Shown here: positions 76-24,000 of the stretch, piece after piece | Numbering within the stretch: position 1 is the first letter of the stretch | Layout: each line of letters starts with the position of its first letter | Assembly: GCA_964628795.1 (NCBI GenBank) | Contig: CAZVMS010000216.1 | Span: 12,164 to 36,163 of the forward strand | Length of the DNA stretch: 24,000 bases | Direction: 5' to 3' | DNA from: an uncultured Haloferula sp. | Lineage (GTDB): Bacteria > Verrucomicrobiota > Verrucomicrobiia > Verrucomicrobiales > Akkermansiaceae | Program-made: the position numbers and the translations under genes | The notes under the pieces: generated by a model | Database searches by the model: none | Seen by the model: only the letters and a program-made list of their open reading frames with translations | What the model was told of the DNA's origin: nothing

Positions 76-207
76 ATGCCTCTGAGCATCGACAATGCCG
101 ACAATGTCGGCACGGAGTTCAACGATCTTCATCGTCCATCCAAAAATAAATCCGGATTTATCCCGGCGCAGGCCTTGAATTCATCCAATCGGGGTTTCAT
201 CACTTAT

Positions 208-2664: not shown

Positions 2665-2681
2665 CAAAACCAACCACCACC

Positions 2682-3989
2682 ATGAACCGCCGCCAATTCC
2701 TGCAAACCAGTTCCCTCGGCTTCGGCTGGCTCGGCCTCTCCGCCCTCGCCTCCGAGCCCGCGAAGAAATCCCCGAAACGCGTCATCTTCCTCTGCATGAG
2801 AGGCGCGCCGTCCCACGTCGATACCTTCGACTACAAACCCAAACTCAATGCCGATACCGGCAAGCCCGGCCCGCGCCCCGGCACGCAACTGTTAGGCTCG
2901 CGCTGGAAATTCTCCCAACACGGCCAAAGCGGCCATTACATGTCAGAGCTGTTCCCGCAACTCGCCGCCTGTGCCGATGATCTCTGCTTCCTCCACGGCA
3001 TGCAGACCGAAGTGCCCGCCCATCCGCAAGCCTACCTCCGCATGCACACCGGCAGCTCGCAGTTTGTCCGCCCCTCGCTCGGTGCATGGACGCACTACGG
3101 CCTCGGTTCGCTCAACGACAACCTCCCCGGCTTCATCACCCTCGCCCCACCCAGCGGACTCGGCGGCGCACAAAACTACGGCAGCGCCTTCCTCCCCGCG
3201 CAATTCCAAGGCACCCGCATCGGCGTGGAAAAACGCCCCATCGCCAGCGCCGAAGTCGCCAACCTGAAATCCGCCCTCACCCCCGATGCCCAGCGCAAAG
3301 AACTCGATCTCATCCAATCGCTCAACACCTCCAAGCTCACCCGAGAAACGCAGGACCCGCAGATCGAAGGTCTCATCCAGTCCTACGAACTCGCCTACCG
3401 CATGCAAAGCGCCATGCCCGGCGTGATGGATTTGGAAAAGGAAACCGAAGCCACCCGCAAACTCTACGGCATCGGCGAACCCGTCACCGACGACTTCGGC
3501 CGCAAGTGCCTGCTCGCCCGCCGCATGATCGAATCCGGCGTGCGCTTCGTCGAAATCAACCACGGCGATTGGGATCATCACTTCAACCTCGGCGAAGCCC
3601 TGCCCGCCAGTTGCGCCGCCGTCGATCTCCCGCTGCGCGGCCTGCTCACCGACCTGAAATCCCGCAGCCTCCTCCAAGACACCCTCGTCATCTGGGGCGG
3701 CGAATTCGGCCGCACCCCGCACGCCGAAGGCCAGGACGGCCGCGACCACAACGTCGGCGCCTTCACCATGTGGATGGCCGGCTGCGGCGTCAAAGCCGGC
3801 ACCCGCTACGGCGTCACCGACGACTACGGCTACGAGGCCGTCGATGGCAAAGTCAGCATCCACGACTGGCACGCCACCATCCTCCACCTGTTAGGCCTCG
3901 ATCACACCAAACTCACCCACCGCCACGCCGGCCGCGACTTCCGTCTCACGGACGTCCACGGCCGTGTCGTGAAAGAGATTGTCGCGTGA
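2682..3989 (+). CDS. DUF1501 family protein (sulfatase-like fold) with twin-arginine signal
   Basis: Tat-like N-terminus MNRRQFLQTSSLGFGWLGLSALA. DUF1501-typical blocks are VIFLCMRGAPSHVDTFDYKP, GDWDHH, VIWGGEFGRTP and GRDHN. It starts 18 bp after the PSCyt/PSD gene, the canonical pairing. Confidence 0.9.
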   Translation: MNRRQFLQTSSLGFGWLGLSALASEPAKKSPKRVIFLCMRGAPSHVDTFDYKPKLNADTGKPGPRPGTQLLGSRWKFSQHGQSGHYMSELFPQLAACADDLCFLHGMQTEVPAHPQAYLRMHTGSSQFVRPSLGAWTHYGLGSLNDNLPGFITLAPPSGLGGAQNYGSAFLPAQFQGTRIGVEKRPIASAEVANLKSALTPDAQRKELDLIQSLNTSKLTRETQDPQIEGLIQSYELAYRMQSAMPGVMDLEKETEATRKLYGIGEPVTDDFGRKCLLARRMIESGVRFVEINHGDWDHHFNLGEALPASCAAVDLPLRGLLTDLKSRSLLQDTLVIWGGEFGRTPHAEGQDGRDHNVGAFTMWMAGCGVKAGTRYGVTDDYGYEAVDGKVSIHDWHATILHLLGLDHTKLTHRHAGRDFRLTDVHGRVVKEIVA

Positions 3990-4043
3990 GACCTGACATG
4001 CGGCCTCAATCGCTGCGCAAACCACTTCCGGTCGAGGGGGCGG

Positions 4044-4292
4044 TATTTTCTCGCTGCCGGCGAGGTTGGCGAGGGTGCGGGCGACTTTGAGGATGCGGTC
4101 GTGGGCGCGGGCGGGAATGCGTTGACGGTGGTTTTCGAACTGACCGGGGGAGCCGCGGCATTCCCTCTTGGTGTCTCCGTAGTAGCCGCAGTTGCAGGGG
4201 TTCATGGCGGCGACGAGCATGAAGCGGGCGGGGAAGGTGAATGAGCCCGCTGCCCGGCTTTTCGAAACGGCACCGTCTTCAGACGGCTGTTT
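4044..4292 (-). pseudogene. comM: comM/yifB (Mg-chelatase-like AAA+ competence protein) internal/3' fragment, decayed
   Basis: The minus-strand translation reads ..QPSEDGAVSKSRAAGSFTFPARFMLVAAMNPCNCGYYGDTKRECRGSPGQFENHRQRI|PARAHDRILKVARTLANLAGSEKI. This matches the conserved ComM blocks (LRQPLEDG.V.ISRA, FPA.F.LVAAMNPCPCGY, RA..RILKVARTIADL). About 85 aa between the RI-SGPLLDRIDL region and the RA..RILKV block are missing. There is no N-terminal AAA+ part and no proper C-terminus. It corresponds to track ORF 3891-4220. Confidence 0.7.
4051..4191. repeat. Direct repeat copy A (141 bp, comM-derived)
   Basis: Hand alignment to 11502-11642 gives 129/141 identities with no gaps and the same orientation. 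Confidence 0.85.
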
Positions 4293-10801: not shown

Positions 10802-11092
10802 TCAGAGGATCGAGGAAGCGAGCTTGTCCTTGCCCTTGCAGCCGTCCTTGCCGGAGCACTTCTCCTTGTCGCCTTCTTTCTTTTTGCCATCGCATCCGTC
10901 CTTGCCGGAGCACTTGTCTTTCTCGGCGGCCAGGACGCTGGTGATGGATTCCTTCTTTTTGCCATCGCAGCCGTCCTTGCCAGAGCATTTTTCCTTGTCC
11001 GCATTGACATAGCCAATGGCGGCGGTGGCGCTGCCTGCGGCGAAGAGTCCGGCGAGTGCGGCGGTGGCGAGGGTTTTGGTGGTTGGATTCAT
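10802..11092 (-). CDS. Secreted Cys-repeat RiPP precursor peptide (bufferin/oxazolin-like; 96 aa)
   Basis: The preferred start is ATG 11092 (MNPTTKTLATAALAGLFAAGSATA|AIGY..., a Sec signal with an A-x-A site). The core contains three copies of (D/E)K(E/D)KCSGKDGC(D/K)GK, giving 6 Cys. It lies directly upstream of DUF692/DUF2063/DoxX on the same strand. Confidence 0.8.
   Translation of the reverse strand: MNPTTKTLATAALAGLFAAGSATAAIGYVNADKEKCSGKDGCDGKKKESITSVLAAEKDKCSGKDGCDGKKKEGDKEKCSGKDGCKGKDKLASSIL
10829..10999 (-). repeat. Three 42-nt coding repeats inside the precursor gene
   Basis: The units are at 10829-10870, 10883-10924 and 10958-10999. The two pairwise hand counts made (unit 1 vs unit 2, unit 1 vs unit 3) each give 36/42 identities. 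Each unit encodes one xKxKCSGKDGCxGK module. Confidence 0.85.
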
Positions 11093-11430
11093 GATGATTT
11101 CTTGTGGTTGTCTGTTTGTGGTTTGCCGCCTTCCGATGCCCGTGTGGCATCTCCGGCGCACTGGTGAGTCGTCCGGCGTTCGCGAGGCTTAACACGGATG
11201 ATGAAGTTTTTTCCTATTCCTCGGGTTGGCCCCCAAACCGGTAGGCATCACGAGAAATCATCCAGCCAAGACGAGTTGAGTCGATGTGGCCAAACCATGA
11301 TCCACCCGCCTGGCTCTCTTTGGTAGGGAGCGGATGTTGATTTTCCACGATGGGTTTCATGCCGCCCAAGCTTCGCAACAGAAAGTTGATGAGCGTCCTA
11401 CTCGGATGTGTTAGGCGGCTGAACCGGCGG

Positions 11431-11642
11431 TCATGAAAACAGACTCTGATTCAACGAGCGGTATTGGAGCGCCTCAAGAATGTGGTTTGGGGCGAATGGA
11501 TTCGCTACCGGCGAGGTCGGCGAGGGTAAGGGCGACTTTAAGGATGCGGTCGTGGGCGCGGGCGGGAATGCGTTGGCGGTGGTTTTCGGTCTGGCCGGGG
11601 GAGCAGCGGCATTCTCTCTTGGTGTCGCCGTAGTAGCCGCAG
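11431..11642 (-). pseudogene. comM: comM/yifB 3'-terminal fragment with authentic C-terminus
   Basis: The minus-strand translation reads (stop)[74 protein letters not shown]. It has the same internal deletion junction as the 4044-4292 fragment. Unlike that fragment, it keeps the canonical ComM end (EA.QYR.L). An in-frame stop lies immediately upstream, and there is no 5' part of the gene. Confidence 0.7.
11502..11642. repeat. Direct repeat copy B (141 bp, comM-derived)
   Basis: This is the partner of 4051-4191, with 129/141 identities and the same orientation. Confidence 0.85.
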
Positions 11643-11735
11643 GGCTGTGGAAATCATTTGCATTTTAGTTCCCACACTTGCGAGCAAGGCCGGATGATCA
11701 AGGAACGGGGATTTGTCATTTTTTTATAAGGAGAT

Positions 11736-11762
11736 GGTCAGCATTGTCCGGATTACGGTAGT
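11736..11762 (+). promoter_or_regulatory. Candidate ECF-type promoter (GGTCAG-N14-CGGTAGT) upstream of the sigma/FecR-like operon
   Basis: The sequence is ATGGTCAGcattgtccggattaCGGTAGT. It is preceded by an AT-rich T7 tract (11719-11725) and ends 5 nt before GTG 11768 and 14 nt before ATG 11777. The same bipartite motif with identical 14-nt spacing occurs at 16288-16314 and 20304-20330. Confidence 0.45.
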
Positions 11763-11767
11763 ACAGG

Positions 11768-12325
11768 GTGAATGACATGAACTCGGCATCCCAGCATCGC
11801 CCTCAGGATTCCCGTCAAGAGGCGGAGATCGCACTCGGCATTGCCTCTCTGAGGCTGCCACTACGCGGCTATCTGCACACGCTCGTTCCGGACCGGGCAG
11901 CTTGTGATGATCTGGTCCAAGAGACGTTGCTATTTCTCTGGGAACGGAGGGAAAGCGCCGATGAATCGACCCCGCTCAAGACATGGGCCTTCAAGGTGGC
12001 GTGGTTCAAGTCGATGGCCTGGCATCGCGACCGTCGGCGGGACCGCCTGGTCTATTTTTCCGACGACATGCTTCAACAGATTGCCCCATTGGCCGAGGCG
12101 ATGAGCAGCACCGCCGAGAATCGACTGGAAGCCCTGCGCCACTGCCTGGCTGGCCTCCCGGAAGAGGATTTGGCCTTGCTGCGGCTCAAGTATGTCAATC
12201 AGGGATCGCTCACCAGCTACGCCAACGCGCGGGGTTGGAAACCAAACCGCGTGCAGAAAGCCCTCTCTCGCCTGCGCCTTGCGTTACGCCATTGCATTCG
12301 GACTCGCCTACTTTCAGAATCATGA
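11768..12325 (+). CDS. ECF sigma-70 family sigma factor (Rhodopirellula/Verrucomicrobium-type)
   Basis: Region 2 reads DDLVQETLLFLWERRES...LKTWAFKVAWFKSMAWHRDRRR. Region 4 reads LPEEDLALLRLKYVNQGSLTSYANARGWKPNRVQKALSRLRLALRHC. The track start 11768 is a GTG, and ATG 11777 is equally possible. Its stop overlaps the next ATG (ATGA at 12322-12325). Confidence 0.9.
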   Translation: MNDMNSASQHRPQDSRQEAEIALGIASLRLPLRGYLHTLVPDRAACDDLVQETLLFLWERRESADESTPLKTWAFKVAWFKSMAWHRDRRRDRLVYFSDDMLQQIAPLAEAMSSTAENRLEALRHCLAGLPEEDLALLRLKYVNQGSLTSYANARGWKPNRVQKALSRLRLALRHCIRTRLLSES

Positions 12326-13842
12326 ACACCCCCACCCCAGAACTGCGGGATCTACTCGACCGCCTGATCGACGAGGATGGCCTGAGTCGCTCCGATATGG
12401 GCCGACTTGAAGAGCTGATGAGCGAGCCGGAAATCATGTCCTATTGCTGCGAAATGCTGCTGCATGAGTCGCTCATGCCTGAGGCCCTTGCGACCATGGA
12501 AACCGCGCTTTCGCATGTCCATGGAGATCAGCAGCCAGTTCGATCGGGTGTGATGGGTCGTATTGCCCGGATTCTTCCGCTGGCGGCGGCTGCCGGACTC
12601 TCCTTTTTCGCAGGGCTACTGGTCGGCGATAATCCGTCTCCTCCGCCGGCATCCGCCGCCGCTCCACCCGCCGGATTCACCACAGACCACGCCGCCAAGG
12701 TGACCGGCCTGATGGGCGTCGTCTGGCAAGACAACGCCGCCCCGACCGTCATTGATGGCTCGGTGAACGCACAAAGGGTCGCGTTCAAGAGCGGATTGGT
12801 CGAACTGACTTACGCCAGCGGCGCGCGCGTCACCCTCGAAGGTCCGGCCGATTTCACCGTGTCCGATCCGACTTCCGGCCGACTCTCAGCCGGCAAACTC
12901 GTGGCCTACGTGCCCAAGGGCGCGGAAGGATTTACCGTCGATTACGGCAATGGTCAGGTCGTTGACCTTGGCACCGAGTTCGCGATGGATCTCGCCGCGA
13001 ACGGCAAAATGGAACTCGGCGTGTTCGAGGGCGAAGTGGAGCTTCACCTGCCCGACGAAACTCCATTGTTACTTAACCGCAGCCAGGCAATGGTGCACGA
13101 TCGGAATGCGGAAGAACCACTCCGCCCCGTGCCCTTCGACCGCGCCAAGTTCGTCCGCGAGCTTCCGAATCGGGACATTCCATGGGCGATAAAATCCTCC
13201 GAACCGACGGAGCTGGAACTCGACATCAGCCACCTCATCTGGAAGTCAGCGGAATACCGGGCCATCTTCAAGTGGTTCTCTGGGAAGGACGCTGTGGAAA
13301 TCCGCCACGTCGAACTCCGCCGGGACGGTGAGCTGATTGCCGCAGACCCGCATCCCGGGCAGACCGGCCTGCTTCTTCATGTGAAGGATAACATCTACGA
13401 CCTCACGATTCCTTCCGGCTACTATCAACCCGGCCGCTGGACCCTCCACGCCACCATCGCCCAATTGCCGCGAACCGGTGGAATGACCCGCTACCGCGGC
13501 CCGGTCGATAGCTCGGGAGTCATGGTCTTGGAGGAAGGCATGGTAAACCGGGCGCAGGCAGCTGACTTCATCGGTGCCTGGAGTTATTCGTTTGCCGGTG
13601 CCCGCTTCGTCCGCCGGTTCCACGCCGATGGCACCATCACGGTCACCAAGAACGGACAACGGCAGCCCAAAGCCTTCGCCAACTGCTCTTGGTGGGTGGA
13701 CAAGGGCGTTCTTCATGCGGAGATCCCGAACGGCGACGGATTGGTGGAGACCCACATCCTGCGCGACCGCGACACCTTGATCTTCACCAACCGGTCATTT
13801 GGCAATGCGGTTCGTGTTGCGGAAGAGGGCAGCGGCGATTGA
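12322..13842 (+). CDS. FecR-like transmembrane anti-sigma factor with an uncharacterised C-terminal domain of about 230 aa
   Basis: The chosen start is ATG 12322 (MNTPTPELRDLLDRLIDEDGLS), coupled to the sigma stop by an ATGA overlap. It has a single TM (IARILPLAAAAGLSFFAGLLVG) and a FecR-type beta-rich region (GLVELTYASGARVTLEGPADFTV...GFTVDYGNGQVVDLGTEFAMDL...GVFEGEVELH). The rest of the protein (from about IPWAIKSSEP onward) was not recognised. Confidence 0.8.
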   Translation: MNTPTPELRDLLDRLIDEDGLSRSDMGRLEELMSEPEIMSYCCEMLLHESLMPEALATMETALSHVHGDQQPVRSGVMGRIARILPLAAAAGLSFFAGLLVGDNPSPPPASAAAPPAGFTTDHAAKVTGLMGVVWQDNAAPTVIDGSVNAQRVAFKSGLVELTYASGARVTLEGPADFTVSDPTSGRLSAGKLVAYVPKGAEGFTVDYGNGQVVDLGTEFAMDLAANGKMELGVFEGEVELHLPDETPLLLNRSQAMVHDRNAEEPLRPVPFDRAKFVRELPNRDIPWAIKSSEPTELELDISHLIWKSAEYRAIFKWFSGKDAVEIRHVELRRDGELIAADPHPGQTGLLLHVKDNIYDLTIPSGYYQPGRWTLHATIAQLPRTGGMTRYRGPVDSSGVMVLEEGMVNRAQAADFIGAWSYSFAGARFVRRFHADGTITVTKNGQRQPKAFANCSWWVDKGVLHAEIPNGDGLVETHILRDRDTLIFTNRSFGNAVRVAEEGSGD

Positions 13843-13990
13843 GTCGAGCGGGAGACGGTCACGCTCTTGCGGAATTCAAAGCGCCGCCCGTCAGCAAACC
13901 GGCATTTGTGGTACTAGGCTGTGCAGCTTGCTTTTGCTCCAAAGGCTTTCCAACTCCGCATTTGCCCGACGACCCACCCCTCTTGAATTC

Positions 13991-16240
13991 ATGTTAAGCG
14001 ATTTGTTCCGATGGATTGTTTTTGCCCTCGGCCTCTCAACTGCCTTTCCGGCACTGGCGGATAGGCCTGCGGCGCCCGGAGCGCCAGCCGCAGCGGCTGT
14101 CATCCAACGCCTGCTGCCGGAGCACGCCGATGACTTTGTTTGCGAAATCCTCGCGGGAAACAAGGATCTCGACGTGTTTGAAATCACGACCCGCGATGGA
14201 AAAATCGTGCTTCGAGGCAACCGGCCCGTGTCGATCACCGCAGCGTTCAACCACTATCTGAAATACGTCGCGGGCGGTCATCTCTCGTGGAGCGGCGACC
14301 AGCTCGATCTGGCAAAACCGCTGCCGCTACCGACAGAACCCATCCGCATCGAGAGCCGCTTCCGCCATGGTTACGCGTTCAACTACTGCACATTCAGCTA
14401 CACCATGGCCTGGTGGGACTGGCCGCGCTGGGAACGGGAGATCGATCTGATGGCCGCCAACGGCATCGACCTGCCGCTCGCCATCACCGCTACCGAGGCG
14501 GTCTGGCTCAATGTCCTGCAATGCTTCGGCTATACCAAGGACGAGGCGAAACGATTCATCGCCGGCCCCGGTTACACCGCCTGGTGGCTGATGGGAAATC
14601 TCGAGGGTCGTGGCGGCCCGATCACCGACACTTGGATCGAATCCCGCGTGGCCCTTCAGCGGAAGATTCTTGCCCGCATGCGGGAGCTTGGCATGAGGCC
14701 GGTCATGCAGGGGTTTGTAGGGCTCGTTCCCAACAACTTGCCGCGAAAAGTGCCGGGCACAAGAGTGATCCCCCAAGGCCGTTGGCTCGCCGACCAGCGT
14801 CCCGCCGTCCTCCATCCGGAGGATCCCCTGTTCGCCCGCATGGCCTCGGCATGGTATGAGGAAAAGGAGAAGCTATTCGGGCACTCCGATGCCTTCGCCG
14901 GAGACCTGTTTCATGAGGGCGGCAAAACAGGGGGGATCAGTGTTGCCGCCACCGTCCGCACCGTGCAGCAGGCCATGCTCGCCGCAGACCCGCGCGCTTT
15001 ATGGATCATCCAGGGATGGGGTGGAAACCCGAAGGGTGAGCTGCTCACGGCACTCCATCGCGAGAACACGATGGTGGTCGAGTTGTGCAATGAATTCTGG
15101 CGCAATTGGGTTCCCACCAAGGGTTTCAATGGCACTCCATGGACTTTTGGGACGGTCGTGATCTACGGCGGGAACACCGCGCTTCATGGCCGGCTTGACA
15201 CCATCGCCAACAACCTCAAGGACGCCCTTGCCAGCAAAACCCCACCGATCGGCATCGGCATGGCATGGGAGGGAACCGAAAGCAATCCGGTGGTCAACGA
15301 TTTCCTTTGGGATGCCCGCTGGAGCACCGACGTGCCGGACCCGGGGCATTGGATTGATGGCTATGCCACCCGCCGCTACGGCACCCACCGCCGCGAGGTG
15401 CGTGATGCATGGAAGCTCCTGCTGCAGTCCGCCTACGCCTCATGGCCGAATCAGCGCCGCCCGGGCGAGTCCGTCTTCTGCGCCCGGCCGTCACTGGATG
15501 TTCGAAAGGTTTCGCCATTCGCCGCCAGCATCGAGGTTCCCTATGACCAACGATTGCTGCGCGAGGCGCTGCGCCTTCTGCTGGAAGTCGCGCCCGATTG
15601 TGCCGACCGCGAAACCTATCGCCATGACCTGGTCGATTTCACCCGCCAGTTCATGGCGAATGCCGCGCAGATCCCCTACCGGGAAATGGTCGCCGCCTTC
15701 CGCTCCGGGAATGCGTCCGAGTTCGAGGCCGCAGCAAAGCAATTCATCGACATGCTCGACGATCAGAGCCGCCTGCTGGCCGCGGATTCCCACTTTCTGC
15801 TTGGACGCTGGCTGTCCGACGCACGTGCTTCCGCCGGTGACGATACGGTACAACGCGAACAAAACGAGCGTAACGCCCGCCTGCTCATCACCACCTGGAC
15901 GCAGGAGCGCTCCGGACTCGGCGACTACGCGTGGCGCGAGTGGAGCGGCCTGCTCGATCGCTACCACCTCCCGCGCTGGCAGGCCTTCATCGACGATTTG
16001 CGCGGTCGCCTCGCCGGACGCAAACCCTCACCACCGAACTACTTCGCCATGGAATCCGCCTGGGCCGCCCGCCAGTGGGAAAACGATTCCTACCCACTTG
16101 CGGTTTCCGGTGATCCGGTGCTCCTGAGTCGCGAGTTGTTAGATCGTTGGGGGCCGATGCTCGATGACGCCAAGCGCTACAGCCCGCCCGTGACCCCTCG
16201 GAAACCTGAAATCATCGAAGAGGCCACCGAAGCCCGCTGA
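13991..16240 (+). CDS. Alpha-N-acetylglucosaminidase (glycoside hydrolase family 89, NAGLU-like), secreted
   Basis: The preferred start is ATG 13991 (MLSDLFRWIVFALGLSTAFPALA, a signal peptide). NAGLU-typical blocks are AAFNHYLKYVAGGHLSWSGDQL, YAFNYCTFSYTMAWWDWPRWEREIDLMAANGIDLPLA, GPGYTAWWLMGNLEG, RMRELGMRPVMQGFVG and LWIIQGWGGNP. Confidence 0.9.
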   Translation: MLSDLFRWIVFALGLSTAFPALADRPAAPGAPAAAAVIQRLLPEHADDFVCEILAGNKDLDVFEITTRDGKIVLRGNRPVSITAAFNHYLKYVAGGHLSWSGDQLDLAKPLPLPTEPIRIESRFRHGYAFNYCTFSYTMAWWDWPRWEREIDLMAANGIDLPLAITATEAVWLNVLQCFGYTKDEAKRFIAGPGYTAWWLMGNLEGRGGPITDTWIESRVALQRKILARMRELGMRPVMQGFVGLVPNNLPRKVPGTRVIPQGRWLADQRPAVLHPEDPLFARMASAWYEEKEKLFGHSDAFAGDLFHEGGKTGGISVAATVRTVQQAMLAADPRALWIIQGWGGNPKGELLTALHRENTMVVELCNEFWRNWVPTKGFNGTPWTFGTVVIYGGNTALHGRLDTIANNLKDALASKTPPIGIGMAWEGTESNPVVNDFLWDARWSTDVPDPGHWIDGYATRRYGTHRREVRDAWKLLLQSAYASWPNQRRPGESVFCARPSLDVRKVSPFAASIEVPYDQRLLREALRLLLEVAPDCADRETYRHDLVDFTRQFMANAAQIPYREMVAAFRSGNASEFEAAAKQFIDMLDDQSRLLAADSHFLLGRWLSDARASAGDDTVQREQNERNARLLITTWTQERSGLGDYAWREWSGLLDRYHLPRWQAFIDDLRGRLAGRKPSPPNYFAMESAWAARQWENDSYPLAVSGDPVLLSRELLDRWGPMLDDAKRYSPPVTPRKPEIIEEATEAR

Positions 16241-16287
16241 ATCGATTCCATACAAAACAAGCACCCACGGGATTTTATGAGAAAATC

Positions 16288-16314
16288 GGTCAGTAATCCG
16301 AGGGCAGCGGTACT
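16288..16314 (+). promoter_or_regulatory. Candidate ECF-type promoter (GGTCAG-N14-CGGTACT) upstream of the HtrA-like operon
   Basis: The sequence is TGAGAAAATCGGTCAGtaatccgagggcagCGGTACT, 47 nt upstream of ATG 16362. It is identical in the 16-nt upstream half and in the CGGTACT half to the site at 20304-20330. Confidence 0.45.
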
Positions 16315-16361
16315 AACAAACGAGCCTTTCGACTAACGCGTTCTTTGAGCCGTTCCGCTTC

Positions 16362-18485
16362 ATGATCATTCCACTAAAACCGAACCTGGGATTTGATGCA
16401 GACTCGGCCGCGACCCTCGTCGAATCGCAGTATCACACCCCACACCAACACTCCTTGAAGACGTTCAATCTCCTTCGTGCCATTGCTCTTCTGTTCGTCG
16501 CTGTGACTGCCCCAAGTGGCGCCGACGATGTCGATCAGGTCATGGAACTGGCCAAGCCCGCGATTGTGAGGATCGAGGTGCTCATGGAGGAAGGCCGGGA
16601 CGGCCGAATGTTCAAGCAGCGCGGCTTCGGCAGCGGTGCCATCATCAGCCCGGATGGATACGTGCTCACCAATCACCATGTCGCCGGACGTGGCACTCGT
16701 TTCCGCTGCACCCTGGCCGACCGCGAGGAAATCCCGGCCACGCTCGTCGGCACCGATGCATTGGCGGACCTCGCCGTGATCAAATTGGATCTCTCCGCCC
16801 GGATGAATCCAAACGCGCCGGTGACCGTCGCGACCTTTGGAGATTCCTCGCAATTGAAAGTCGGCGACACCGTGTATGCCCTCGGCAGTCCGGCAGCCCT
16901 GTCGCAGTCGGTGACCAAGGGCATCGTCGCCAACACTGCGATGATCGCACCGAAAATCATGGCCGGCGGTTTGGTGCTGGATGGCGAAAACGTCGGTGAA
17001 TTGGTCCGCTGGATCGGTCACGACGCGGTGATTTTCGGTGGCAACAGCGGAGGACCGCTGGTGGATACCGCCGGCCGGATCATCGGCGTCAACGAAGTCG
17101 GCATCGGTAGCCTCGGCGGCGCGATTCCCGGCAACCTCGCCAAGGAAGTCGCCCACGAACTGATCACCAAGGGCAGCGTGAGTCGTGGTTGGATCGGCAT
17201 CGAGGTCCAGGAACTTCTGCGGGGCGACCGTCAGCACCGCGGCGTGCTGGTAGCCAGTGTGTTTCCCGGCAGTCCCGCCGCCGCCGCCGGGCTCAAGCCG
17301 GGGGATTTCCTCCACACCTTCAATGGCACGCCGATCCCCGATTGCCGCTCGCCGGAGGATCTGCCGGTGTTCAACTCGATGGTGTTAGGCAGCAGGGTCG
17401 GCTCCCCAATCACCCTGACCGGCGAAAACGAGGGCCAACCGACGACTTGGACCGTCGAGGTCATCGCACGCGCCCCGGTGCAGGATCTCGAAAGCGAATT
17501 TGTCCAGTGGGGCATGACCGCGCGGGGCGTCTCGCCGATGGGGGCGCTGGAATTAAAACGCGACAGCACGGCGGGCGTGCAGGTTCACAGCGTCCGAGCC
17601 GGCGGACCAGCCGCCGAAGGTAAGCCGGCCCTTAGAGCGCAGGACATCATCACCCAACTCAACGGCAAGGAGGTGCGCACGCTGGCCGACTTCCGCGCAT
17701 TCAATCGTTCGTTGCCGACAGACGCCAAGGAGCCACAAGCCGTGCTGGTCGCCTTTGAACGCGGAGTGACCCACGACAAGTATCTCACCGTCGTGCGGAT
17801 CGGCCCCGAACCCAAAGCGCAGAATCCGCTCACCGCCGACCGCGGCTGGCTGGGTGTCGACGTCCAGGAGCTCGGCCCGGCACTAGCCGAGGCGTTGAAG
17901 CTCAAGGGCACCACCGGCGTGCGTATCACCCGCATCCAGGCGGACAGCCCGGCGGCCCGTGGCGGCTTGCAGGCCGGCGATATCCTCACCAAGCTGGACG
18001 GCCAGATCATTCCCGCCCGCCGCCCCGAAGACGTGCGCCGATTCACCGAGAGCATCGCCCAACGGGCCCCCGACGCCCCCGTCGCGATCGAATTCATCCG
18101 CGATGGCGGCAAACAATCCGCCACCGTCACACTCGCCGCCAGCCCGGCCGATGATGACGACGTGCCGAAATGGAAAGATCCGGACTTTGAGTTCGCGGTC
18201 TGCGATCTGACCGAAGCCATCAAGGACGCACAGAACATCCCGCTCACGGTCAAAGCCGCCCGTGTCACCGATGTCACGCCCAACGGCTGGGCTTCGCTGG
18301 CCGGACTGTCGAAACATGATTTGATCCTGAGCATCGACGGCGAGCCGATCAACGGTGCCGCCGAACTGGAGAAAAAGTTGGGCGCGCTCAAAGCCGCCAA
18401 ACCCCCGCTGATCGAGTTTTTCCTCCAACGCGGAGTGCGCAATCTCTTCATCCAACTCGAACCCGCTTGGCCCGCCGAATCCTGA
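16362..18485 (+). CDS. HtrA/DegP-family serine protease with four PDZ-like domains
   Basis: The catalytic triad context is intact: GSGAIISPDGYVLTNHHVA (His), DLAVIKLD (Asp) and GGNSGGPLVD (Ser). Four PDZ-like segments are present (GVLVASVFPGSPAAAAGLKPGDFL; VHSVRAGGPAAEG..AQDIITQLNG; GVRITRIQADSPAARGGLQAGDILTKLDG; VTDVTPNGWASLAGLSKHDLILSIDG). It has an N-terminal signal-anchor. Confidence 0.9.
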   Translation: MIIPLKPNLGFDADSAATLVESQYHTPHQHSLKTFNLLRAIALLFVAVTAPSGADDVDQVMELAKPAIVRIEVLMEEGRDGRMFKQRGFGSGAIISPDGYVLTNHHVAGRGTRFRCTLADREEIPATLVGTDALADLAVIKLDLSARMNPNAPVTVATFGDSSQLKVGDTVYALGSPAALSQSVTKGIVANTAMIAPKIMAGGLVLDGENVGELVRWIGHDAVIFGGNSGGPLVDTAGRIIGVNEVGIGSLGGAIPGNLAKEVAHELITKGSVSRGWIGIEVQELLRGDRQHRGVLVASVFPGSPAAAAGLKPGDFLHTFNGTPIPDCRSPEDLPVFNSMVLGSRVGSPITLTGENEGQPTTWTVEVIARAPVQDLESEFVQWGMTARGVSPMGALELKRDSTAGVQVHSVRAGGPAAEGKPALRAQDIITQLNGKEVRTLADFRAFNRSLPTDAKEPQAVLVAFERGVTHDKYLTVVRIGPEPKAQNPLTADRGWLGVDVQELGPALAEALKLKGTTGVRITRIQADSPAARGGLQAGDILTKLDGQIIPARRPEDVRRFTESIAQRAPDAPVAIEFIRDGGKQSATVTLAASPADDDDVPKWKDPDFEFAVCDLTEAIKDAQNIPLTVKAARVTDVTPNGWASLAGLSKHDLILSIDGEPINGAAELEKKLGALKAAKPPLIEFFLQRGVRNLFIQLEPAWPAES

Positions 18486-18525
18486 ACTTGGCACCCGCCA
18501 CACCATTTCCAACGAATCTCATCCC

Positions 18526-19347
18526 ATGCACTTCCGCCCGATCCTCACCGTCACGCTGCTGGCATTCGCCTGCCTGCCAGCCCTTTGCGCCGCCAGCCCT
18601 CCCGCCGCCACTGCCGCCGGGGTGATCGCCAAAAACCAGGATGCGCTCGTCGAAATCCAAGCCACTCTCAGCGTCAAACCCGAACTCATCGACGGCCCGC
18701 CCGGCATCGGCGAGATGATCAACGAGCAACCGGCGGAAGAGCAACCCGCCAACGTCAACGGCGTGGTGATTCACTCCAGCGGACTGGTCGTCGCGCCGCT
18801 CGCCGCGCTCGACCCGGGCACCATGCTTGGCGGCGGCATGGAACTCGAAACCCCGATGGGACCCATCAAACTGGGCATGAAAACGACCATTTCCAGCCTC
18901 AAAATCATCACCGCTGATGGTCACGAATATCCCGCCCAAATCATCCTCAGGGAACCGGCCGCCGGCTTGGCCCTGATCCAGCTCAGCACCCCGCCGGAAG
19001 GAAGCCTGCCCACCGTAATACTGGCACCCGGCTTGCCTGCTCCGTCGCCATTCTCCCAGTTGTTTGATTTGGTCCGGTTGGAAGCCGACTTTGGTCGCGC
19101 GCCAACGGTGCGTTTGATCCGGATGGTCCAAATGACCTCGCCGCCGGTCCCGCTATTCGACGTGACCGGTCCGCTCCCTACCCCCGGCTCCGCCGTGTTT
19201 GACATGAGCGGCCGTTTTCTCGGCCTCTCGGTGATCCCACTGCGCGGCGAGGGGGGGGGCTCATCCATTGCCGACATCGCACAAACTGGGCCCAGCGTCC
19301 TGCCGACGTCCGAAATCCTCCGTCTCTGTGCCAAAGCCATGCCCTGA
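18526..19347 (+). CDS. Secreted trypsin/HtrA-fold-like protein, apparently lacking the catalytic triad
   Basis: It has a signal peptide (MHFRPILTVTLLAFACLPALCA). Protease-domain-like blocks are aligned by eye to the upstream HtrA: NGVVIHSSGLVVAPLAAL vs GSGAIISPDGYVLTNHHVA (no His); AAGLALIQL vs LADLAVIKL (Asp to Gly); LPTPGSAVFDMSGRFLGLSV vs GGNSGGPLVDTAGRIIGVNE (Ser position is Pro). It starts 40 bp after the HtrA-like stop. Confidence 0.6.
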   Translation: MHFRPILTVTLLAFACLPALCAASPPAATAAGVIAKNQDALVEIQATLSVKPELIDGPPGIGEMINEQPAEEQPANVNGVVIHSSGLVVAPLAALDPGTMLGGGMELETPMGPIKLGMKTTISSLKIITADGHEYPAQIILREPAAGLALIQLSTPPEGSLPTVILAPGLPAPSPFSQLFDLVRLEADFGRAPTVRLIRMVQMTSPPVPLFDVTGPLPTPGSAVFDMSGRFLGLSVIPLRGEGGGSSIADIAQTGPSVLPTSEILRLCAKAMP

Positions 19348-19383
19348 TACTGGTTTAAAATCCACCTTACTCTTCATCACTTT

Positions 19384-20151
19384 ATGAAACCACTCGCGAC
19401 CCTCACATCCATGGCCCTGCTGGCCAGTGCCGCCCTGCCCATGTCCGCTCAAGATGTCGATCCGGTGCAAGCCGCCGCCGCCAAGGCCTTCGCCGACCGC
19501 CAGGACAGCACCGTCAAACTCACCGTCACCCGCAAGCTCCAGGGCAAAGACCGGACATTTGAAATTCCCGCAGTGTCATTCGACGGCAAAGACCTGCTCG
19601 TCACTTCCCTCAGCCAGATTGAATCCGGCGGCAGTGGCTTGCTCGCAAATGTCATGATGATGAGCGGCGGCCCGGGAAACGATCTGGACGGCAATGTCGC
19701 GGACAAAGGTGAACTTACCCGCGTCGCCATGCTGCGGGCCGATGCCACCGAGGCCGAAGCTGACTTGGTGCTCACCGATGCCGCACTGGATCTCGCCTTT
19801 GTGCGGGTCCGCCCGACCGACGCTGCGGCAGCACCCATGCCCGCTGCGCCGCCACAGGCCAAGGCCGCGCCGGCACTGTTGGAAACCGTGCTTTCTAGCC
19901 AACGCAAAGGCCCGGATTTCCAACGCGCCGCATCCGCCGAGTTGCTCCATATCGCCGCCCTGGTCAGCACCCCGCGGGATTTCCTCATCCCGTCGCAAGC
20001 GCTGCCCGGCGGCACTCCGGCATACAATCTCGACGGCGAATTGTTAGGGGTTGCCACCATGGTGCAAAAGCAGAGCGTGATCGTGCCCGTCACCGCCATC
20101 GACAAGCTCGCCACCACCATCCCGGCCGAGCCAGAGACTCCGGAACCGTGA
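19384..20151 (+). CDS. Second secreted HtrA-fold-like protein, apparently lacking the catalytic Ser/His
   Basis: It has a signal peptide (MKPLATLTSMALLASAALPMSA|QD). Recognisable blocks are FDGKDLLVTSLSQI (no His), LDLAFVRV (Asp retained) and LPGGTPAYNLDGELLGVAT vs GNSGGPLVDTAGRIIGV (Ser position is Gly). It starts 36 bp after the previous gene. Confidence 0.55.
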   Translation: MKPLATLTSMALLASAALPMSAQDVDPVQAAAAKAFADRQDSTVKLTVTRKLQGKDRTFEIPAVSFDGKDLLVTSLSQIESGGSGLLANVMMMSGGPGNDLDGNVADKGELTRVAMLRADATEAEADLVLTDAALDLAFVRVRPTDAAAAPMPAAPPQAKAAPALLETVLSSQRKGPDFQRAASAELLHIAALVSTPRDFLIPSQALPGGTPAYNLDGELLGVATMVQKQSVIVPVTAIDKLATTIPAEPETPEP

Positions 20152-20175
20152 GTGCGGGTGGAACAGGGAACGCAC

Positions 20176-20253
20176 CCCGGGCGGTGGATCGGAGGCCATG
20201 CCATCCACCGCTACGGCACGGACCGCCCCGAGGTCCGCGATGCATGGAAATGA
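20176..20253 (+). pseudogene. Relic of a GH89 (NAGLU-like) paralogue
   Basis: The translation PGRWIGGHAIHRYGTDRPEVRDAWK* parallels PGHWIDGYATRRYGTHRREVRDAWK of the intact GH89 gene (nt 15341-15414). Nucleotide similarity is visible by eye (ccatgccatccaccgctacggcac.. vs ctatgccacccgccgctacggcac..). There is no surrounding ORF. Confidence 0.5.
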
Positions 20254-20303
20254 TTGCGCCAATCCACCTCTCAGCCTCAATGGTAAGGCTCTTTGAGAAA
20301 ATC

Positions 20304-20330
20304 GGTCAGCATTTCCCGCGCGGCGGTACT
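20304..20330 (+). promoter_or_regulatory. Candidate ECF-type promoter (GGTCAG-N14-CGGTACT) upstream of the giant surface protein gene
   Basis: The sequence is TGAGAAAATCGGTCAGcatttcccgcgcggCGGTACT, 139 nt upstream of ATG 20470. Confidence 0.45.
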
Positions 20331-20469
20331 TCACCATGAGCCCTTTGTTTGACGTGCCTTGCCAATGATCCAAACCCACGACGTTCCGTTATCCATCTTA
20401 TGAAACTCCGACCTGTGAATCCGGAATTCCATGGTGTCCCAGTCAAAATGAACAACCAAGCCAAGTAGC

Positions 20470-23400
20470 ATGAAATCAAAAATCCTCATCGCAATCAGCG
20501 CAGTCGGCCTCTTGATTGCTGGAAGCGTCCATTCGGCCCCTACGGTGCTCATCGACTTCGATGACGGCATCCCCGACAACGGCGTCCATGAAGCATCCGT
20601 CCGCAACGGCGGCTTCGAGGAGGGCGCGAACAACCAAACGTTCGCACAAACCCCGGTTTGGTCGAGCTACTTCAGCCCGGATGGCGATTCATCGACGCTC
20701 ACGTTCAATACCAACGTCAAGACCGGGGCCTTGCGCGGGACGGCAAGCGGGTTTTCGGGCAACGGCACCCGCCAGCAACCTTCGATCACAATTCCGGCCA
20801 GCGCCTGGACCATCGCCGCCGGCGACGTGTTCAACGTCTCGGTGGACTGGCGCAACGGCGCGGCATTCACCGTCGGCACCCACCAGCTCCAAGTGATCCT
20901 TCATGTGGTCGATGCCAATGGCAACCTGGTGGGCGATCCCGCGAACGGCGAATTCGCCGGAGACCGCCTGCTGAGCCGGAACGATTCGCTCGCGACGGCG
21001 GGCCAATACCAAACCTTTTCCATGACTTCGAACCCGGTGCCGGCCGGCAGCCCGTGGATCGGCAACCGGATCCAGATCCGCATCCTCAATTCCGGGGCGC
21101 GGACGAGTTTCGCGATCATCGACAACGTGTCGCTCACCGCCACTCCCTTAATCAGCGAGTCGCTCACCTGGGTGGGTCTTGCGGGTGGAGGGACCTGGGA
21201 CATCGGGACTACGGCCCATTGGAAGGACGCCGCCGAAAACCCGGCGACTTTCAAGAACCTCGACATCGTTTCCTTCGACGACACCGCCGCCACCGGCTTG
21301 GTCGCGCTCGTGGATCCGGAGATCGAGCCCTCCTCGGCGACATTCGCCAACGACACCCTCCCCTACACCCTCTCCGGCGAAGCTTGGAGCGGCGTCGGAT
21401 CCCTAGTGAAAAACGGAGCGGAGGATGTCACGCTGCTCATCGACAACAACCTTGCATCCACTACGATCAACGCTGGCACCCTGCGCATCGGAAACGGCGG
21501 GCTCGATGGATCGCCGGGCACCGGTCCGATCATCAACGACGCCGCCCTGATCATCGCCCGCGACGGCACGGTTGAAATCTCCGGCGGAATTTCCGGCAAC
21601 GGCACCCTCGGCATCGAGGGTCCCGGCACCACCGTGCTCACCGGCGTCAATTCCTACACCGGTGCCACCTCCATCAGCGGCGGAACGCTGCGCGCGGTCG
21701 GAGCGCTGGAGTCACCGGTCACCGTCCAGTCCGGCGGAACACTCGCTCCGGGTCCGGTGTCGGCACCGGGAACTCTCGAATTGCCCGCGCTCTCCTTGCA
21801 AACCGGGTCCGCCACCACTTTCCGCGCCGGTTTCTCCAGCGGCGACCAGATCAATGTCTCCAGCGTCGATGGACTGGCGATCAACGGCAGCCACTCGATC
21901 AACCTGGTTCCGAACGAACTGTGGCTGCCATCCGACGAATTCCCGCTTTTCGTCTATGACACCTCCTATACCGGCAGCGTCGCCAATCTCCAGATCGGCA
22001 GCGCCCCGCACGGCAGCTACACCATCGAGGACCGTCCCGCGACCGGTGAGATCATTGTCCGCGTCGATTCGCTCGATTCCCTCATCTGGAAAGGCAATCA
22101 CAACTCGATCTGGGATGTCAACAGCACCGCCAACTGGCAGCTCCAATCGAACAACGCGACGGCACCCTTCTTCGCCTACGACCAGGTGCGCTTCGATGGC
22201 AGCGCCACCAATACCACCGTCACGGTGGCAGGAACGATCCCGGTCGGGGACATGACCTTCGATTTCGCTGCACCGGTGGCTTACCTGCTCGACGGCTCCG
22301 GAACACTCACCGGAACCGGACTGCTTTTCAAAAATAACACCGGAACACTGACCATCGCCACGACGCTGGCCAACATCGGAGCGACCAATATCGCGGGCGG
22401 GGCACTCGTGGTTGGCAACGGCGGATCGATCGGCAGTCTCGGCGGCGGCGCGATCAACAACAACGGCTCGCTCGCCTTCAATCGGGAGGACAACCTCACC
22501 GTCACCAATGCCATATCCGGCGACGGCACGCTCACCCAACAGGGCACTGGCAACCTCACCCTCGGCGGAGCCACCGCCAACACCTTCACCGGCGACGTCA
22601 CCGTCGCCAGCGGCCGTCTCACTCTCGCCAAGGCAACCGCCCTCGGAACAAGTGCCGACGGTGCCAAAACCGTCACTGTGGCTGCCGGCGCGTCGCTGAA
22701 TTTCAATAACTACACCGGTCTTAACGTGGACCCCAACCGGTCCTACAGTTTCCGCATCGCCGGAAACGGCGACGGCACCGGCGCACTGGTCAATAACGGC
22801 GGGACCAATATCGCCTCCGCCGCCGGCGTGCTCAATTTCGAGCTCACCGGCGACGCCACCATCGGCGGCACCGCCCGCTATGATATCGGCTTCGCCAACG
22901 GCACGCCCGGTTTGATCACCGGCAACGGCCACACCCTGACCAAGATCAGCACCAACCAGGTCACGATGCGCGGGGATGGCAGCGCCAGCCCGATCTCGAT
23001 CATCATCAACGAAGGAATCCTCAGCGCGGAAGGCCACGACAACAGCCTCGGTGGTGCGACTGGAGCCGTGACGGTGAACGAAGCCGCCGTGCTCGGCGCA
23101 TTCGGCCCGCGCAACATTCCCACACCGATCACGCTCAACTCCGGAGCCATCCTGCGCTCACTCGGCGGCAATGTGGCCACCTGGTCGGGTGCCTTCACTC
23201 TTGCAGGAAACGCTTTCATCAATACCCCGTCGTTCGACAAAATCATCAACGGCGTCATCGGCGGCACCGGCGGAATCACCAAGACCGGCGGCAACGCGCT
23301 CACACTCACCGCCGTAAACGACTACACCGGCCCGACCACCGTCAGCGAGGGCAGGCTCATCATCCAGCACCCCTGCCTGGCCGAGTCTTCCGCCATCACC

Positions 23401-23937
23401 GTGGCCGCCACCGCCATCCTCGATCTCGACTTCACCGGTACCAACGTGATCGGAGCGCTCACCATTGCCGGAAACACGCTGGTTCCAGGCATTTACGACG
23501 CCAACACCCACCCGGGCCGCCTCGCCGGCACCGGCAAGCTTCAGGTCGTCGCCTCCGCCAGCGACTACGACGACTGGGCCGGCCCCGCCGGCTTCAACCT
23601 CAGCGGCGGGCCCAGCGACGATGACGACTTCGACGGCCTCGCCAATTTCGATGAATACGCTTTCGGACTGGATCCCACCAGCGGTGCGAGCGCCTCGCCA
23701 GTAACCGCCCCGGACAAGTCCGCCGGCACCTTCACCTACACCCGCCGCAAGCCCTCGCTCACCGGACTCAACTATATCTATCAGTCATCGACCACACTCG
23801 CGGGCTGGGCTCCGTTCACCCCGGTCTCCGAAGGAACCGACAACGGCGACCCGGTGGAAACCATCACCGTCACCCTCCCGGGCACCTTGCTCACCGAGCC
23901 GAAGCTCTTCCTCCAGGTTGAGGCCAGCGAGCCATGA
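20470..23937 (+). CDS. Large secreted autotransporter-associated beta-strand repeat (PATR) protein, putative surface adhesin/binding protein
   Basis: It has a signal peptide (MKSKILIAISAVGLLIAGSVHSA). At least five PATR-like units are present (e.g. GSLVKNGAEDVTLLIDNNLASTTINAGTLRIGNGG; GTLGIEGPGTTVLTGVNSYTGATSISGGTLRA; GTLTQQGTGNLTLGGATANTFTGDVTVASGRLTLA; GITKTGGNALTLTAVNDYTGPTTVSEGRLII). Two W.G....WD.....W....F...D.V.FD units are present. The C-terminus has an acidic DDDDFDGLANFDEYAFGLDP motif. Confidence 0.85.
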   Translation: MKSKILIAISAVGLLIAGSVHSAPTVLIDFDDGIPDNGVHEASVRNGGFEEGANNQTFAQTPVWSSYFSPDGDSSTLTFNTNVKTGALRGTASGFSGNGTRQQPSITIPASAWTIAAGDVFNVSVDWRNGAAFTVGTHQLQVILHVVDANGNLVGDPANGEFAGDRLLSRNDSLATAGQYQTFSMTSNPVPAGSPWIGNRIQIRILNSGARTSFAIIDNVSLTATPLISESLTWVGLAGGGTWDIGTTAHWKDAAENPATFKNLDIVSFDDTAATGLVALVDPEIEPSSATFANDTLPYTLSGEAWSGVGSLVKNGAEDVTLLIDNNLASTTINAGTLRIGNGGLDGSPGTGPIINDAALIIARDGTVEISGGISGNGTLGIEGPGTTVLTGVNSYTGATSISGGTLRAVGALESPVTVQSGGTLAPGPVSAPGTLELPALSLQTGSATTFRAGFSSGDQINVSSVDGLAINGSHSINLVPNELWLPSDEFPLFVYDTSYTGSVANLQIGSAPHGSYTIEDRPATGEIIVRVDSLDSLIWKGNHNSIWDVNSTANWQLQSNNATAPFFAYDQVRFDGSATNTTVTVAGTIPVGDMTFDFAAPVAYLLDGSGTLTGTGLLFKNNTGTLTIATTLANIGATNIAGGALVVGNGGSIGSLGGGAINNNGSLAFNREDNLTVTNAISGDGTLTQQGTGNLTLGGATANTFTGDVTVASGRLTLAKATALGTSADGAKTVTVAAGASLNFNNYTGLNVDPNRSYSFRIAGNGDGTGALVNNGGTNIASAAGVLNFELTGDATIGGTARYDIGFANGTPGLITGNGHTLTKISTNQVTMRGDGSASPISIIINEGILSAEGHDNSLGGATGAVTVNEAAVLGAFGPRNIPTPITLNSGAILRSLGGNVATWSGAFTLAGNAFINTPSFDKIINGVIGGTGGITKTGGNALTLTAVNDYTGPTTVSEGRLIIQHPCLAESSAITVAATAILDLDFTGTNVIGALTIAGNTLVPGIYDANTHPGRLAGTGKLQVVASASDYDDWAGPAGFNLSGGPSDDDDFDGLANFDEYAFGLDPTSGASASPVTAPDKSAGTFTYTRRKPSLTGLNYIYQSSTTLAGWAPFTPVSEGTDNGDPVETITVTLPGTLLTEPKLFLQVEASEP

Positions 23938-24000
23938 ATCCGGGTGACCTTGATTTTGAAATGAACCATACCTGAAGTGAAACAAACATAACCTAACAAA

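Follow-up and report, generated by a model that had tools for sequence, protein, structure and literature searches.

In a window of 24,000 nucleotides (nt) from an uncultured Haloferula sp. (positions 12164-36163 of contig C216, CAZVMS010000216.1, assembly GCA_964628795.1), we found that a bipartite motif, GGTCAG-N14-CGGTA(C/G)T, stands 5' of a gene for an extracytoplasmic function (ECF) sigma factor, 5' of an HtrA-like protease operon and 5' of a gene for a PATR-repeat surface protein. The motif thus precedes both the sigma gene and its predicted targets and recurs in relatives, as expected of an autoregulated ECF regulon, and it is very probably a promoter read by the neighbouring sigma factor. 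We consider it highly likely that the sites serve as ECF-type promoters for RNA polymerase that carries the product of the sigma gene at 11777-12325, and that the regulon operates by the mechanism proposed below. The sites and the two regulatory genes are as follows (bits and ranks are those of the genome scan described in the next section).

11736-11762, plus strand: P1, GGTCAG-N14-CGGTAGT, exact match, predicted autoregulatory promoter of the sigma/FecR-like operon (30.7 bits, rank 2)
13889-13915, plus strand: P2, CGTCAG-N14-TGGTACT, weak or degenerate site (GTCAG-N15-GG[AT]A core search; homology to L055:11567)
16278-16314, plus strand: P3, GGTCAG-N14-CGGTACT with the A-tract TGAGAAAATC in front, predicted to drive the HtrA-like operon (26.5 bits, rank 3)
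20294-20330, plus strand: P4, GGTCAG-N14-CGGTACT with the A-tract TGAGAAAATC in front, predicted to drive the PATR/surface-protein/glycan-enzyme unit (35.6 bits, rank 1)
11777-12325, plus strand: ECF sigma factor of the TIGR02989 family, 182 aa (Pfam Sigma70_r2, TIGR02989)
12322-13842, plus strand: FecR-like anti-sigma factor, 506 aa (Pfam FecR, AlphaFold2 (AF2) model, Foldseek)

The motif is confined to one locus of the genome

A first-pass annotation of this DNA had reported three sites with identical spacing and no full copy of the motif inside genes or on the minus strand. Both statements held when we searched the two strands of the window: GGTCAG-N14-CGGTA[CG]T matched at 11736-11762, 16288-16314 and 20304-20330, each time on the plus strand, in an intergenic gap and 5' of a plus-strand unit, and it was not matched once in 100 dinucleotide-preserving shuffles of the window. 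The list of three was nevertheless incomplete, since it overlooked the degenerate site P2 at 13889-13915, which came out when the motif was relaxed to GTCAG-N15-GG[AT]A, the core common to homologous loci.

We then searched all 356 contigs of the genome (5.84 Mb). Of six matches to GGTCAG-N14-CGGTA, three are those of the window; as the reversed pattern gave the same number, the remaining three do not exceed background. With GTCAG-N15-GGTA[CG]T exactly four matches were obtained on both strands of the 5.84 Mb, and these are P1, P2, P3 and P4, all intergenic and all on the plus strand of one 8.6-kb stretch, whereas the reversed control gave seven matches scattered over the genome.

The strongest single result was obtained with a weight matrix built from 16 sites in the orthologous loci L055-L064 of other, Luteolibacter-like genomes without any site of the window, since its training is independent of the DNA under study. 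Over about 11.7 million genome positions, P4 (35.6 bits), P1 (30.7 bits) and P3 (26.5 bits) took ranks 1, 2 and 3, and the next-best score was 20.5 bits. Above 24 bits the matrix gave three matches in the whole genome and the reversed matrix gave none.

A regulon spread over the genome was rejected, as the exact pattern, the relaxed patterns and two weight matrices gave no credible site outside the locus; the next-best sites (C173:5333, C132:6523, C126:8286 and C255:16150) were dismissed because they lack either the core or any downstream gene. The genome-wide search that the first-pass annotation had proposed as a check therefore placed its three intergenic sites at the top without adding credible copies elsewhere, and the regulon appears to be strictly local. 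A promoter and terminator scan found no sigma-70-like promoter and no terminator-like site in the four gaps that carry the motif, and a scan of window positions 11000-24000 against Rfam matched no family.

The sigma factor and its FecR-like partner

The predicted product of 11777-12325 matches TIGR02989 with 134.6 bits (cut-off 124.55; residues 30-177), TIGR02937 with 58.4 bits (cut-off 42.9) and Pfam Sigma70_r2 at 6e-10, and is thus an ECF sigma factor (sigma-70 group IV) of the TIGR02989 Rhodopirellula/Verrucomicrobium subfamily. The longest open reading frame (ORF) begins at the GTG at 11768, which the first-pass annotation had taken as the start. We corrected this to the ATG at 11777, which is probably the true start because the N-termini of the orthologues (182-183 aa, 70-85% identical) align there and because the motif keeps its distance to this ATG in all seven orthologous loci described below.

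The ATG of the FecR-like gene overlaps the sigma stop codon (ATGA), an arrangement of translational coupling, and the sigma/FecR-like pair is kept in all homologous loci that we examined, so that the anti-sigma factor is encoded together with its sigma factor throughout. The 506-aa protein matches Pfam FecR with 26.2 bits (cut-off 24), and its C-terminal ~220 aa form beta domains without a Pfam match. In the AF2 model (mean predicted local distance difference test score, pLDDT, 83.4) an N-terminal helical anti-sigma part is followed by a helix at 78-101, predicted to be a single membrane anchor, and by a beta-rich periplasmic region that includes the FecR domain. With this model Foldseek retrieved the BDI_1681 anti-sigma protein (4m0n) and the C-terminal cell-surface signalling domain of PupR (6ovk) at E values of 1e-4 to 2e-6, and also an Akkermansia glycosidase domain (8pxu); these are matches to parts of the model, with the residues not localised. 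The 240 homologues retrieved for it carry the name FecR family where they come from Luteolibacter, and on the names of its homologues the organism falls in Luteolibacter (Verrucomicrobiota).

At least 11 other ECF-like sigma genes are present in the genome, each at most 33% identical to the sigma factor of the window over full-length alignments, and the motif was found upstream of none of these distant paralogues. Together these two observations suggest a dedicated, insulated circuit.

P1 itself has some features of its own. A T-tract lies 5' of it at 11720-11726. The P1 spacer (window 11742-11755) and the spacers of the P1 sites of L055-L064 share ATTTGCCGGATTC, with GGAT just before the -10-like element; this is absent from the spacers of target promoters, and the flanks 5' of the P1 sites are not conserved. 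It could mark either a further regulatory site or an extended -10-like element that only P1 has. At window positions 11757-11779, as at the orthologous P1 sites, the sigma ATG follows GGTA after 16-17 nt, with a purine-rich stretch of the GGTGAAGG type in between, which predicts a very short sigma mRNA leader, of about 9-11 nt, across the family.

Conservation of the motif in relatives

True orthologues of the locus were identified by a search with the FecR-like protein (56-78% identical) on seven distinct contigs: L055, L056, L058, L060, L061, L063 and L064. In all seven, where the sigma factor is 70-85% identical, the motif lies 16-17 nt 5' of the sigma ATG, and at least one further copy, with an A-tract (gaaaaaaatc) on its 5' side, precedes a PATR or giant surface-protein gene. 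One copy in L055 stands before a GH35-GH89 pair (GH, glycoside hydrolase family). The architecture common to the orthologous sites is an A-tract, GGTCAGCAT, N11 and CGG(T/A)A.

More distant sigma homologues, 38-59% identical and drawn from the genus and the order, were compared at 16 loci. GTCAG-N15-GG[AT]A is found just 5' of the sigma gene in 13 of them, and at the nine closest the sigma ATG begins 10-16 nt after the -10-like element. Six of the 16 carry a second copy directly after the FecR-like gene, and L034 is a seventh distant locus with downstream copies (its sites are at 208, 4233, 5931 and 8641). The target copies of the distant loci precede genes for PEP-CTERM proteins, LamG/DUF1573 proteins of ~820 aa or GH89. 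The -10 variant is clade-specific (GGAATA, GGTAT or GGAAC/GGTAC) and is usually the same in the sigma-gene promoter and the target promoter of one locus. Conservation at orthologous loci, which had been suggested as a check on the motif, was thus confirmed and extends to distant homologues; altogether the motif lies directly 5' of orthologous or paralogous sigma genes in more than 20 loci.

On this comparison the conserved regulon appears to consist of GH35 and GH89 glycosidases, PATR and LamG giant proteins, and sulfatases. When species representative genomes were searched at the level of the order, sigma homologues at E<=1e-36 were almost confined to the genus, and a search of metagenome contigs with the sigma factor gave only homologues at most 32% identical.

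P2 and the GH89 gene

13991-16240, plus strand: GH89 alpha-N-acetylglucosaminidase, 749 aa, signal peptide (Pfam NAGLU_N, NAGLU, NAGLU_C)

P2 lies in the 148-nt gap between the stop codon of the FecR-like gene and the ATG of the GH89 gene, and it is homologous to L055:11567, a site of full consensus at the same position. We treat it as a weak or decaying promoter, and GH89 may also be reached by read-through from P1. The GH89 gene probably starts at the ATG at 13991, because this start yields the signal peptide MLSDLFRWIVFALGLSTAFPALA; orthologues of 749 aa are present in L055, L060 and L062. Signal peptides were predicted for all products of the locus except the sigma factor and the FecR-like protein.

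P3 and P4 derive from a duplication

20171-20249, plus strand: relic of a GH89 gene (blastn, 81% identity over 79 nt to 15336-15414, E 8e-18)
20400-20468, plus strand: 22-codon remnant ORF (aligned with the L055 leader up to and including the ancestral PATR start, ATGAAAC(T/C)CCGA, beyond which the alignment breaks)

The first-pass annotation had cautioned that part of the resemblance between the second and third of its sites could reflect a segmental duplication, and that its first site shares only the core with them. The latter was confirmed by comparing the sites, as P1 and P2 have the core alone in common with P3 and P4. The former is correct in so far as P3 and P4 share a stretch, a block of 37 bp (16278-16314 and 20294-20330) without any extension beyond it, and a real GH89 relic lies 5' of P4: by tblastn, 21 of 31 residues of the relic are identical to GH89 residues 451-481, and it contains an in-frame stop. 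The distribution of the mismatches, however, favours function. The 14-nt spacer holds all seven differences between P3 and P4, and the A-tract, GGTCAG and CGGTACT, together 23 positions, are identical; our own arithmetic gives this distribution a chance of ~3e-4 (hypergeometric, C(14,7)/C(37,7)). Selection on the promoter elements thus appears to be still visible after the duplication, and the caveat, read in this way, seems to strengthen the functional interpretation.

The gene order of L055 is GH89, promoter, PATR, and the GH89 relic looks like the remnant of such an ancestral GH89-promoter-PATR junction. P4 and its leader are orthologous to L055:16320 (119 of 150 positions identical), and the 22-codon ORF at 20400-20468 keeps the start and the first codons of the ancestral PATR gene known from L055 and L056. 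Because this alignment continues through the ancestral PATR start, P4 is the ancestral copy and P3 the derived one. Since the N-terminus of the present PATR protein differs from the ancestral one, the gene body behind P4 was presumably replaced by recombination.

The HtrA-like module was recruited in this lineage

16362-18485, plus strand: HtrA/DegP-like serine protease (Pfam Trypsin_2, four PDZ domains; TIGR02037, 2e-101)
18526-19347, plus strand: secreted trypsin-like paralogue 1, 273 aa, signal peptide, second gene of the module (weak Trypsin_2 match)
19384-20151, plus strand: secreted trypsin-like paralogue 2, 255 aa, signal peptide, third gene of the module (Trypsin_2, 1.5e-4)

The annotated ATG at 16362 adds 31 residues ahead of the signal peptide of the HtrA-like protein. 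Its orthologues have 660-687 aa and are 81-88% identical, and that of L066 aligns from the TTG equivalent to 16455; the start is perhaps this TTG (676 aa), in which case the leader behind P3 would be about 130 nt long. The orthologues always occur as HtrA plus two genes of ~250-275 aa, in unrelated contexts in other genomes; paralogue 1 is kept as the second gene, and paralogue 2 is the third in L065 and L066. Elsewhere in the genome of the window there is only a paralogue that is 47% identical.

We found no motif 5' of the orthologous modules in L065 and L066, the two loci for which DNA was available, and the module is present in none of the orthologous sigma loci. We also considered whether orthologues of the HtrA operon stand behind the motif in relatives and rejected it: the homologues of paralogue 1 in the genus are 28-34% identical and located elsewhere, and the true HtrA orthologues lack the motif. 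If a FecR-type signal controls a periplasmic protease module, it would thus do so in this lineage only. Of the connection that had been proposed between such a signal, the protease and a large surface protein, the surface proteins stand as conserved targets and the protease module as a recruit of this lineage only. The module would have been placed behind a duplicated segment made of the GH89 3' end and the promoter, which became P3 and wired the proteases into the glycan/surface-protein regulon.

At L066:6532-8259 the HtrA module adjoins the genes of a different small ECF sigma factor (173 aa), a 156-aa protein and a PDZ protein, which suggests that in that genome the module is under another envelope-stress sigma factor.

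The PATR gene heads a long same-strand array

20470-23937, plus strand: PATR-repeat secreted surface protein, 1155 aa, signal peptide (Pfam PATR, 8e-15; TIGR02601)

The PATR gene is the first of a closely spaced array of genes, all read in its direction, which continues beyond the window (C216:36170-52078 = L067:171-16079). The array encodes a 247-aa protein with a weak PEP-CTERM match, a GH35 beta-galactosidase and a 1574-aa Reprolysin/LamG/PATR giant, and it ends with two sulfatase-LamG giants that have SGSH_C domains (SGSH-like sulfatases). These are the same gene families as in the orthologous sigma loci. No further motif was found in the contig region of the array beyond the window; its ~16 kb are probably co-transcribed from P4, which may drive a unit of about 20 kb.

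Proposed mechanism and alternative explanations

From the established behaviour of ECF sigma factors and FecR proteins we infer the following scheme, in which the motif acts as promoter, the sigma factor is its reader and transcription starts ~6-9 nt beyond CGGTA; the proposed signal and the operon extents belong to it as well. Each promoter would combine an A/T tract with GGTCAG(C)AT as the -35-like element and, after 11 variable bases, with CGGTA as the -10-like element. At rest the membrane-anchored FecR-like protein would hold the sigma factor, which an envelope signal would release; the gene content of the locus suggests a sulfated glycan with alpha-GlcNAc and beta-Gal as a candidate signal. 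The freed sigma factor would transcribe its own operon from P1, in positive feedback, and GH89 from the weak P2, by read-through, or both. It would further transcribe the three-gene HtrA-like protease operon from P3 and the PATR gene from P4; the GH35, Reprolysin/LamG and sulfatase genes that follow are probably under P4 as well.

Several observations weigh against this scheme. P2 scores 6.5 bits with the orthologue matrix and has no A-tract, and three orthologous loci have no site at its position. P3 and P4, being duplicates, are not independent sites, and the HtrA operon stands behind the motif in one genome only. An AAC core in the -35 element is common in ECF promoters, and the GTCAG of the -35-like half lacks this core, which is typical of many of them; we therefore use the labels -35 and -10 by analogy of architecture only. 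In the papers searched we found no work on promoters of this sigma family and no transcription start site data.

Instead of a promoter recognised by a sigma factor, the motif might be an operator to which a conventional repressor or activator, with its gene elsewhere, binds. Sequence alone does not tell protein partners apart, and the additional conservation of the P1 spacers in the orthologues could be explained by a second factor. Yet neither half of the motif repeats the other in direct or inverted form, its orientation is always that of the downstream gene, and the fixed 16-17 nt to the sigma ATG leave no room for a separate promoter 3' of it; nor do the gaps hold a sigma-70-like promoter. 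Moreover, no transcription-factor gene is conserved across the orthologous loci, whereas the motif always accompanies this ECF sigma subfamily and its variant changes with the sigma clade. An operator of this kind is thus very improbable. The same co-occurrence bears on the idea that the sites are real ECF promoters read by one or several other ECF sigma factors of the genome, or subject to cross-talk, so that the adjacent sigma factor would not be their reader. The number of other ECF-like sigma genes gives room for this, and the pairing of promoter and sigma factor is deduced from sequence; however, those sigma factors are too distant and too consistently devoid of the motif, which across genomes goes with this subfamily and lies directly 5' of its gene, for us to give such a reader more than a slight chance.

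A last explanation is that the sites resemble each other merely as the residue of a segmental duplication and have no present function. P3 and P4 are demonstrable duplicates and the GH89 relic adjoins P4, but P1 and P2 share only the core with them, the mismatches between P3 and P4 are restricted to the spacer although the adjacent relic is just 81% identical, and the elements are conserved in genomes with 38-85% sigma identity, where the flanks cannot be aligned. On the distribution of the mismatches and the conservation across genomes we rejected pure duplication, which we consider the least likely of the three. Recognition by the adjacent sigma factor is the reading we retain: the candidate autoregulated ECF regulon of the first-pass annotation was supported by the sequence tests, namely a TIGR02989 sigma factor coupled to a FecR-like protein, conservation of the motif over more than 20 loci, the first three ranks in the matrix scan and the absence of a close sigma paralogue.

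Comparison with known systems

The promoter of Bacillus subtilis SigW is TGAAAC-N16-CGTA and that of E. coli sigma-E is GGAACTT-N16-TCAAA. As in these autoregulated regulons, the sites of the window have bipartite non-palindromic elements, a rigid spacer and an A/T-rich tract 5' of the -35 half; a copy lies directly 5' of the sigma/anti-sigma operon, the sigma factor is translationally coupled and, by prediction, co-transcribed with its anti-sigma factor, and the regulon is a small one of exported proteins. The elements themselves, GGTCAGCAT and CGGTA, have other sequences, and the -35-like half is without an AAC core; the regulon does not extend beyond one locus, and a very short sigma leader is predicted.

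Cell-surface signalling of the FecI/FecR/FecA type (E. coli Fec, Pseudomonas PupI/PupR/PupB) belongs to the ECF239-243 clade (Casas-Pastor et al. 2021, PMC7826278). The anti-sigma factor of the window resembles this type in its FecR domain and its PupR-like (6ovk) and BDI_1681-like fold, and the two genes are adjacent. The sigma factor, however, falls in TIGR02989 and not in a FecI model, the C-terminal ~220 aa of its partner are without a Pfam match, the sigma operon appears to be autoregulated, and the predicted targets are glycosidases, sulfatases and surface proteins rather than a siderophore receptor. Neither the window, nor the contig downstream of it, nor the orthologous loci were found to encode a TonB-dependent transducer or an STN domain, so the input route would differ from FecA-type signalling.

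In Bacteroides, polysaccharide utilisation loci controlled by ECF sigma and anti-sigma factors serve host mucosal glycans (PMC4659458). The window likewise has an ECF sigma factor and a FecR-type anti-sigma factor beside glycan enzymes and surface proteins that are presumably induced. GH89, GH35 and two SGSH-like sulfatases are encoded behind the motif, their control by the sigma factor being predicted, and this content points to host-type or sulfated glycans. In contrast to the Bacteroides loci, the organism is verrucomicrobial, the motif is different, PATR, LamG and PEP-CTERM proteins are encoded where those loci have surface glycan-binding lipoproteins, and the Pfam annotation of the locus and its orthologues contains no SusC/SusD pair.

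As a tentative idea, which we think rather less likely to be right than wrong, the Luteolibacter sigma/FecR-like family could be the verrucomicrobial counterpart of the ECF-controlled glycan loci of Bacteroides, without a TonB-dependent transducer. The C-terminal beta domains of the FecR-like protein might then sense a sulfated alpha-GlcNAc/beta-Gal glycan, either directly or via the regulated PATR/LamG proteins, and the promoter might be a portable cassette that recruits operons by duplication, with the HtrA module as an example caught in the act.

Genes around the locus

An intact comM gene (Mg-chelatase-like, 510 aa) lies on the minus strand at C216:52268-53797 (L067:16266-17798), ~28 kb past the sigma locus. 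The window itself contains two decayed copies of the comM 3' end, at about 4037-4292 and 11431-11650 (minus strand), which bracket a block for a ribosomally synthesized and post-translationally modified peptide (RiPP) and the ECF/glycan block. The pattern resembles that of two insertions in tandem at the 3' end of comM, so that the ECF locus as a whole may have been acquired as an island. At window positions 76-3989, 5' of the RiPP block, a PSCyt1/PSCyt2/PSD1 (DUF1549/DUF1553) protein and a DUF1501 protein are encoded, a pair typical of Planctomycetes and Verrucomicrobia.

Significance

The circuit is expected behaviour for an ECF sigma factor, and the gain is one of annotation and experimental leverage, not of a new principle. 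Specific to it are the motif, its conservation across the family, the lack of a TonB-dependent partner, the glycan-enzyme and PATR targets, and the capture of a protease operon. The last is a clean case of regulon rewiring, in which a protease operon was apparently captured by a duplicated promoter segment. What is gained is a testable promoter consensus (A-tract, GGTCAGCAT, N11, CGGTA) and a defined small regulon for an expanded, uncharacterised family of ECF sigma and FecR-like proteins in Luteolibacter and related Verrucomicrobia, the wiring of which is almost unstudied. The link of this switch to a locus of GH89, GH35, sulfatase and surface-protein genes suggests how these bacteria may induce the degradation of sulfated glycans.

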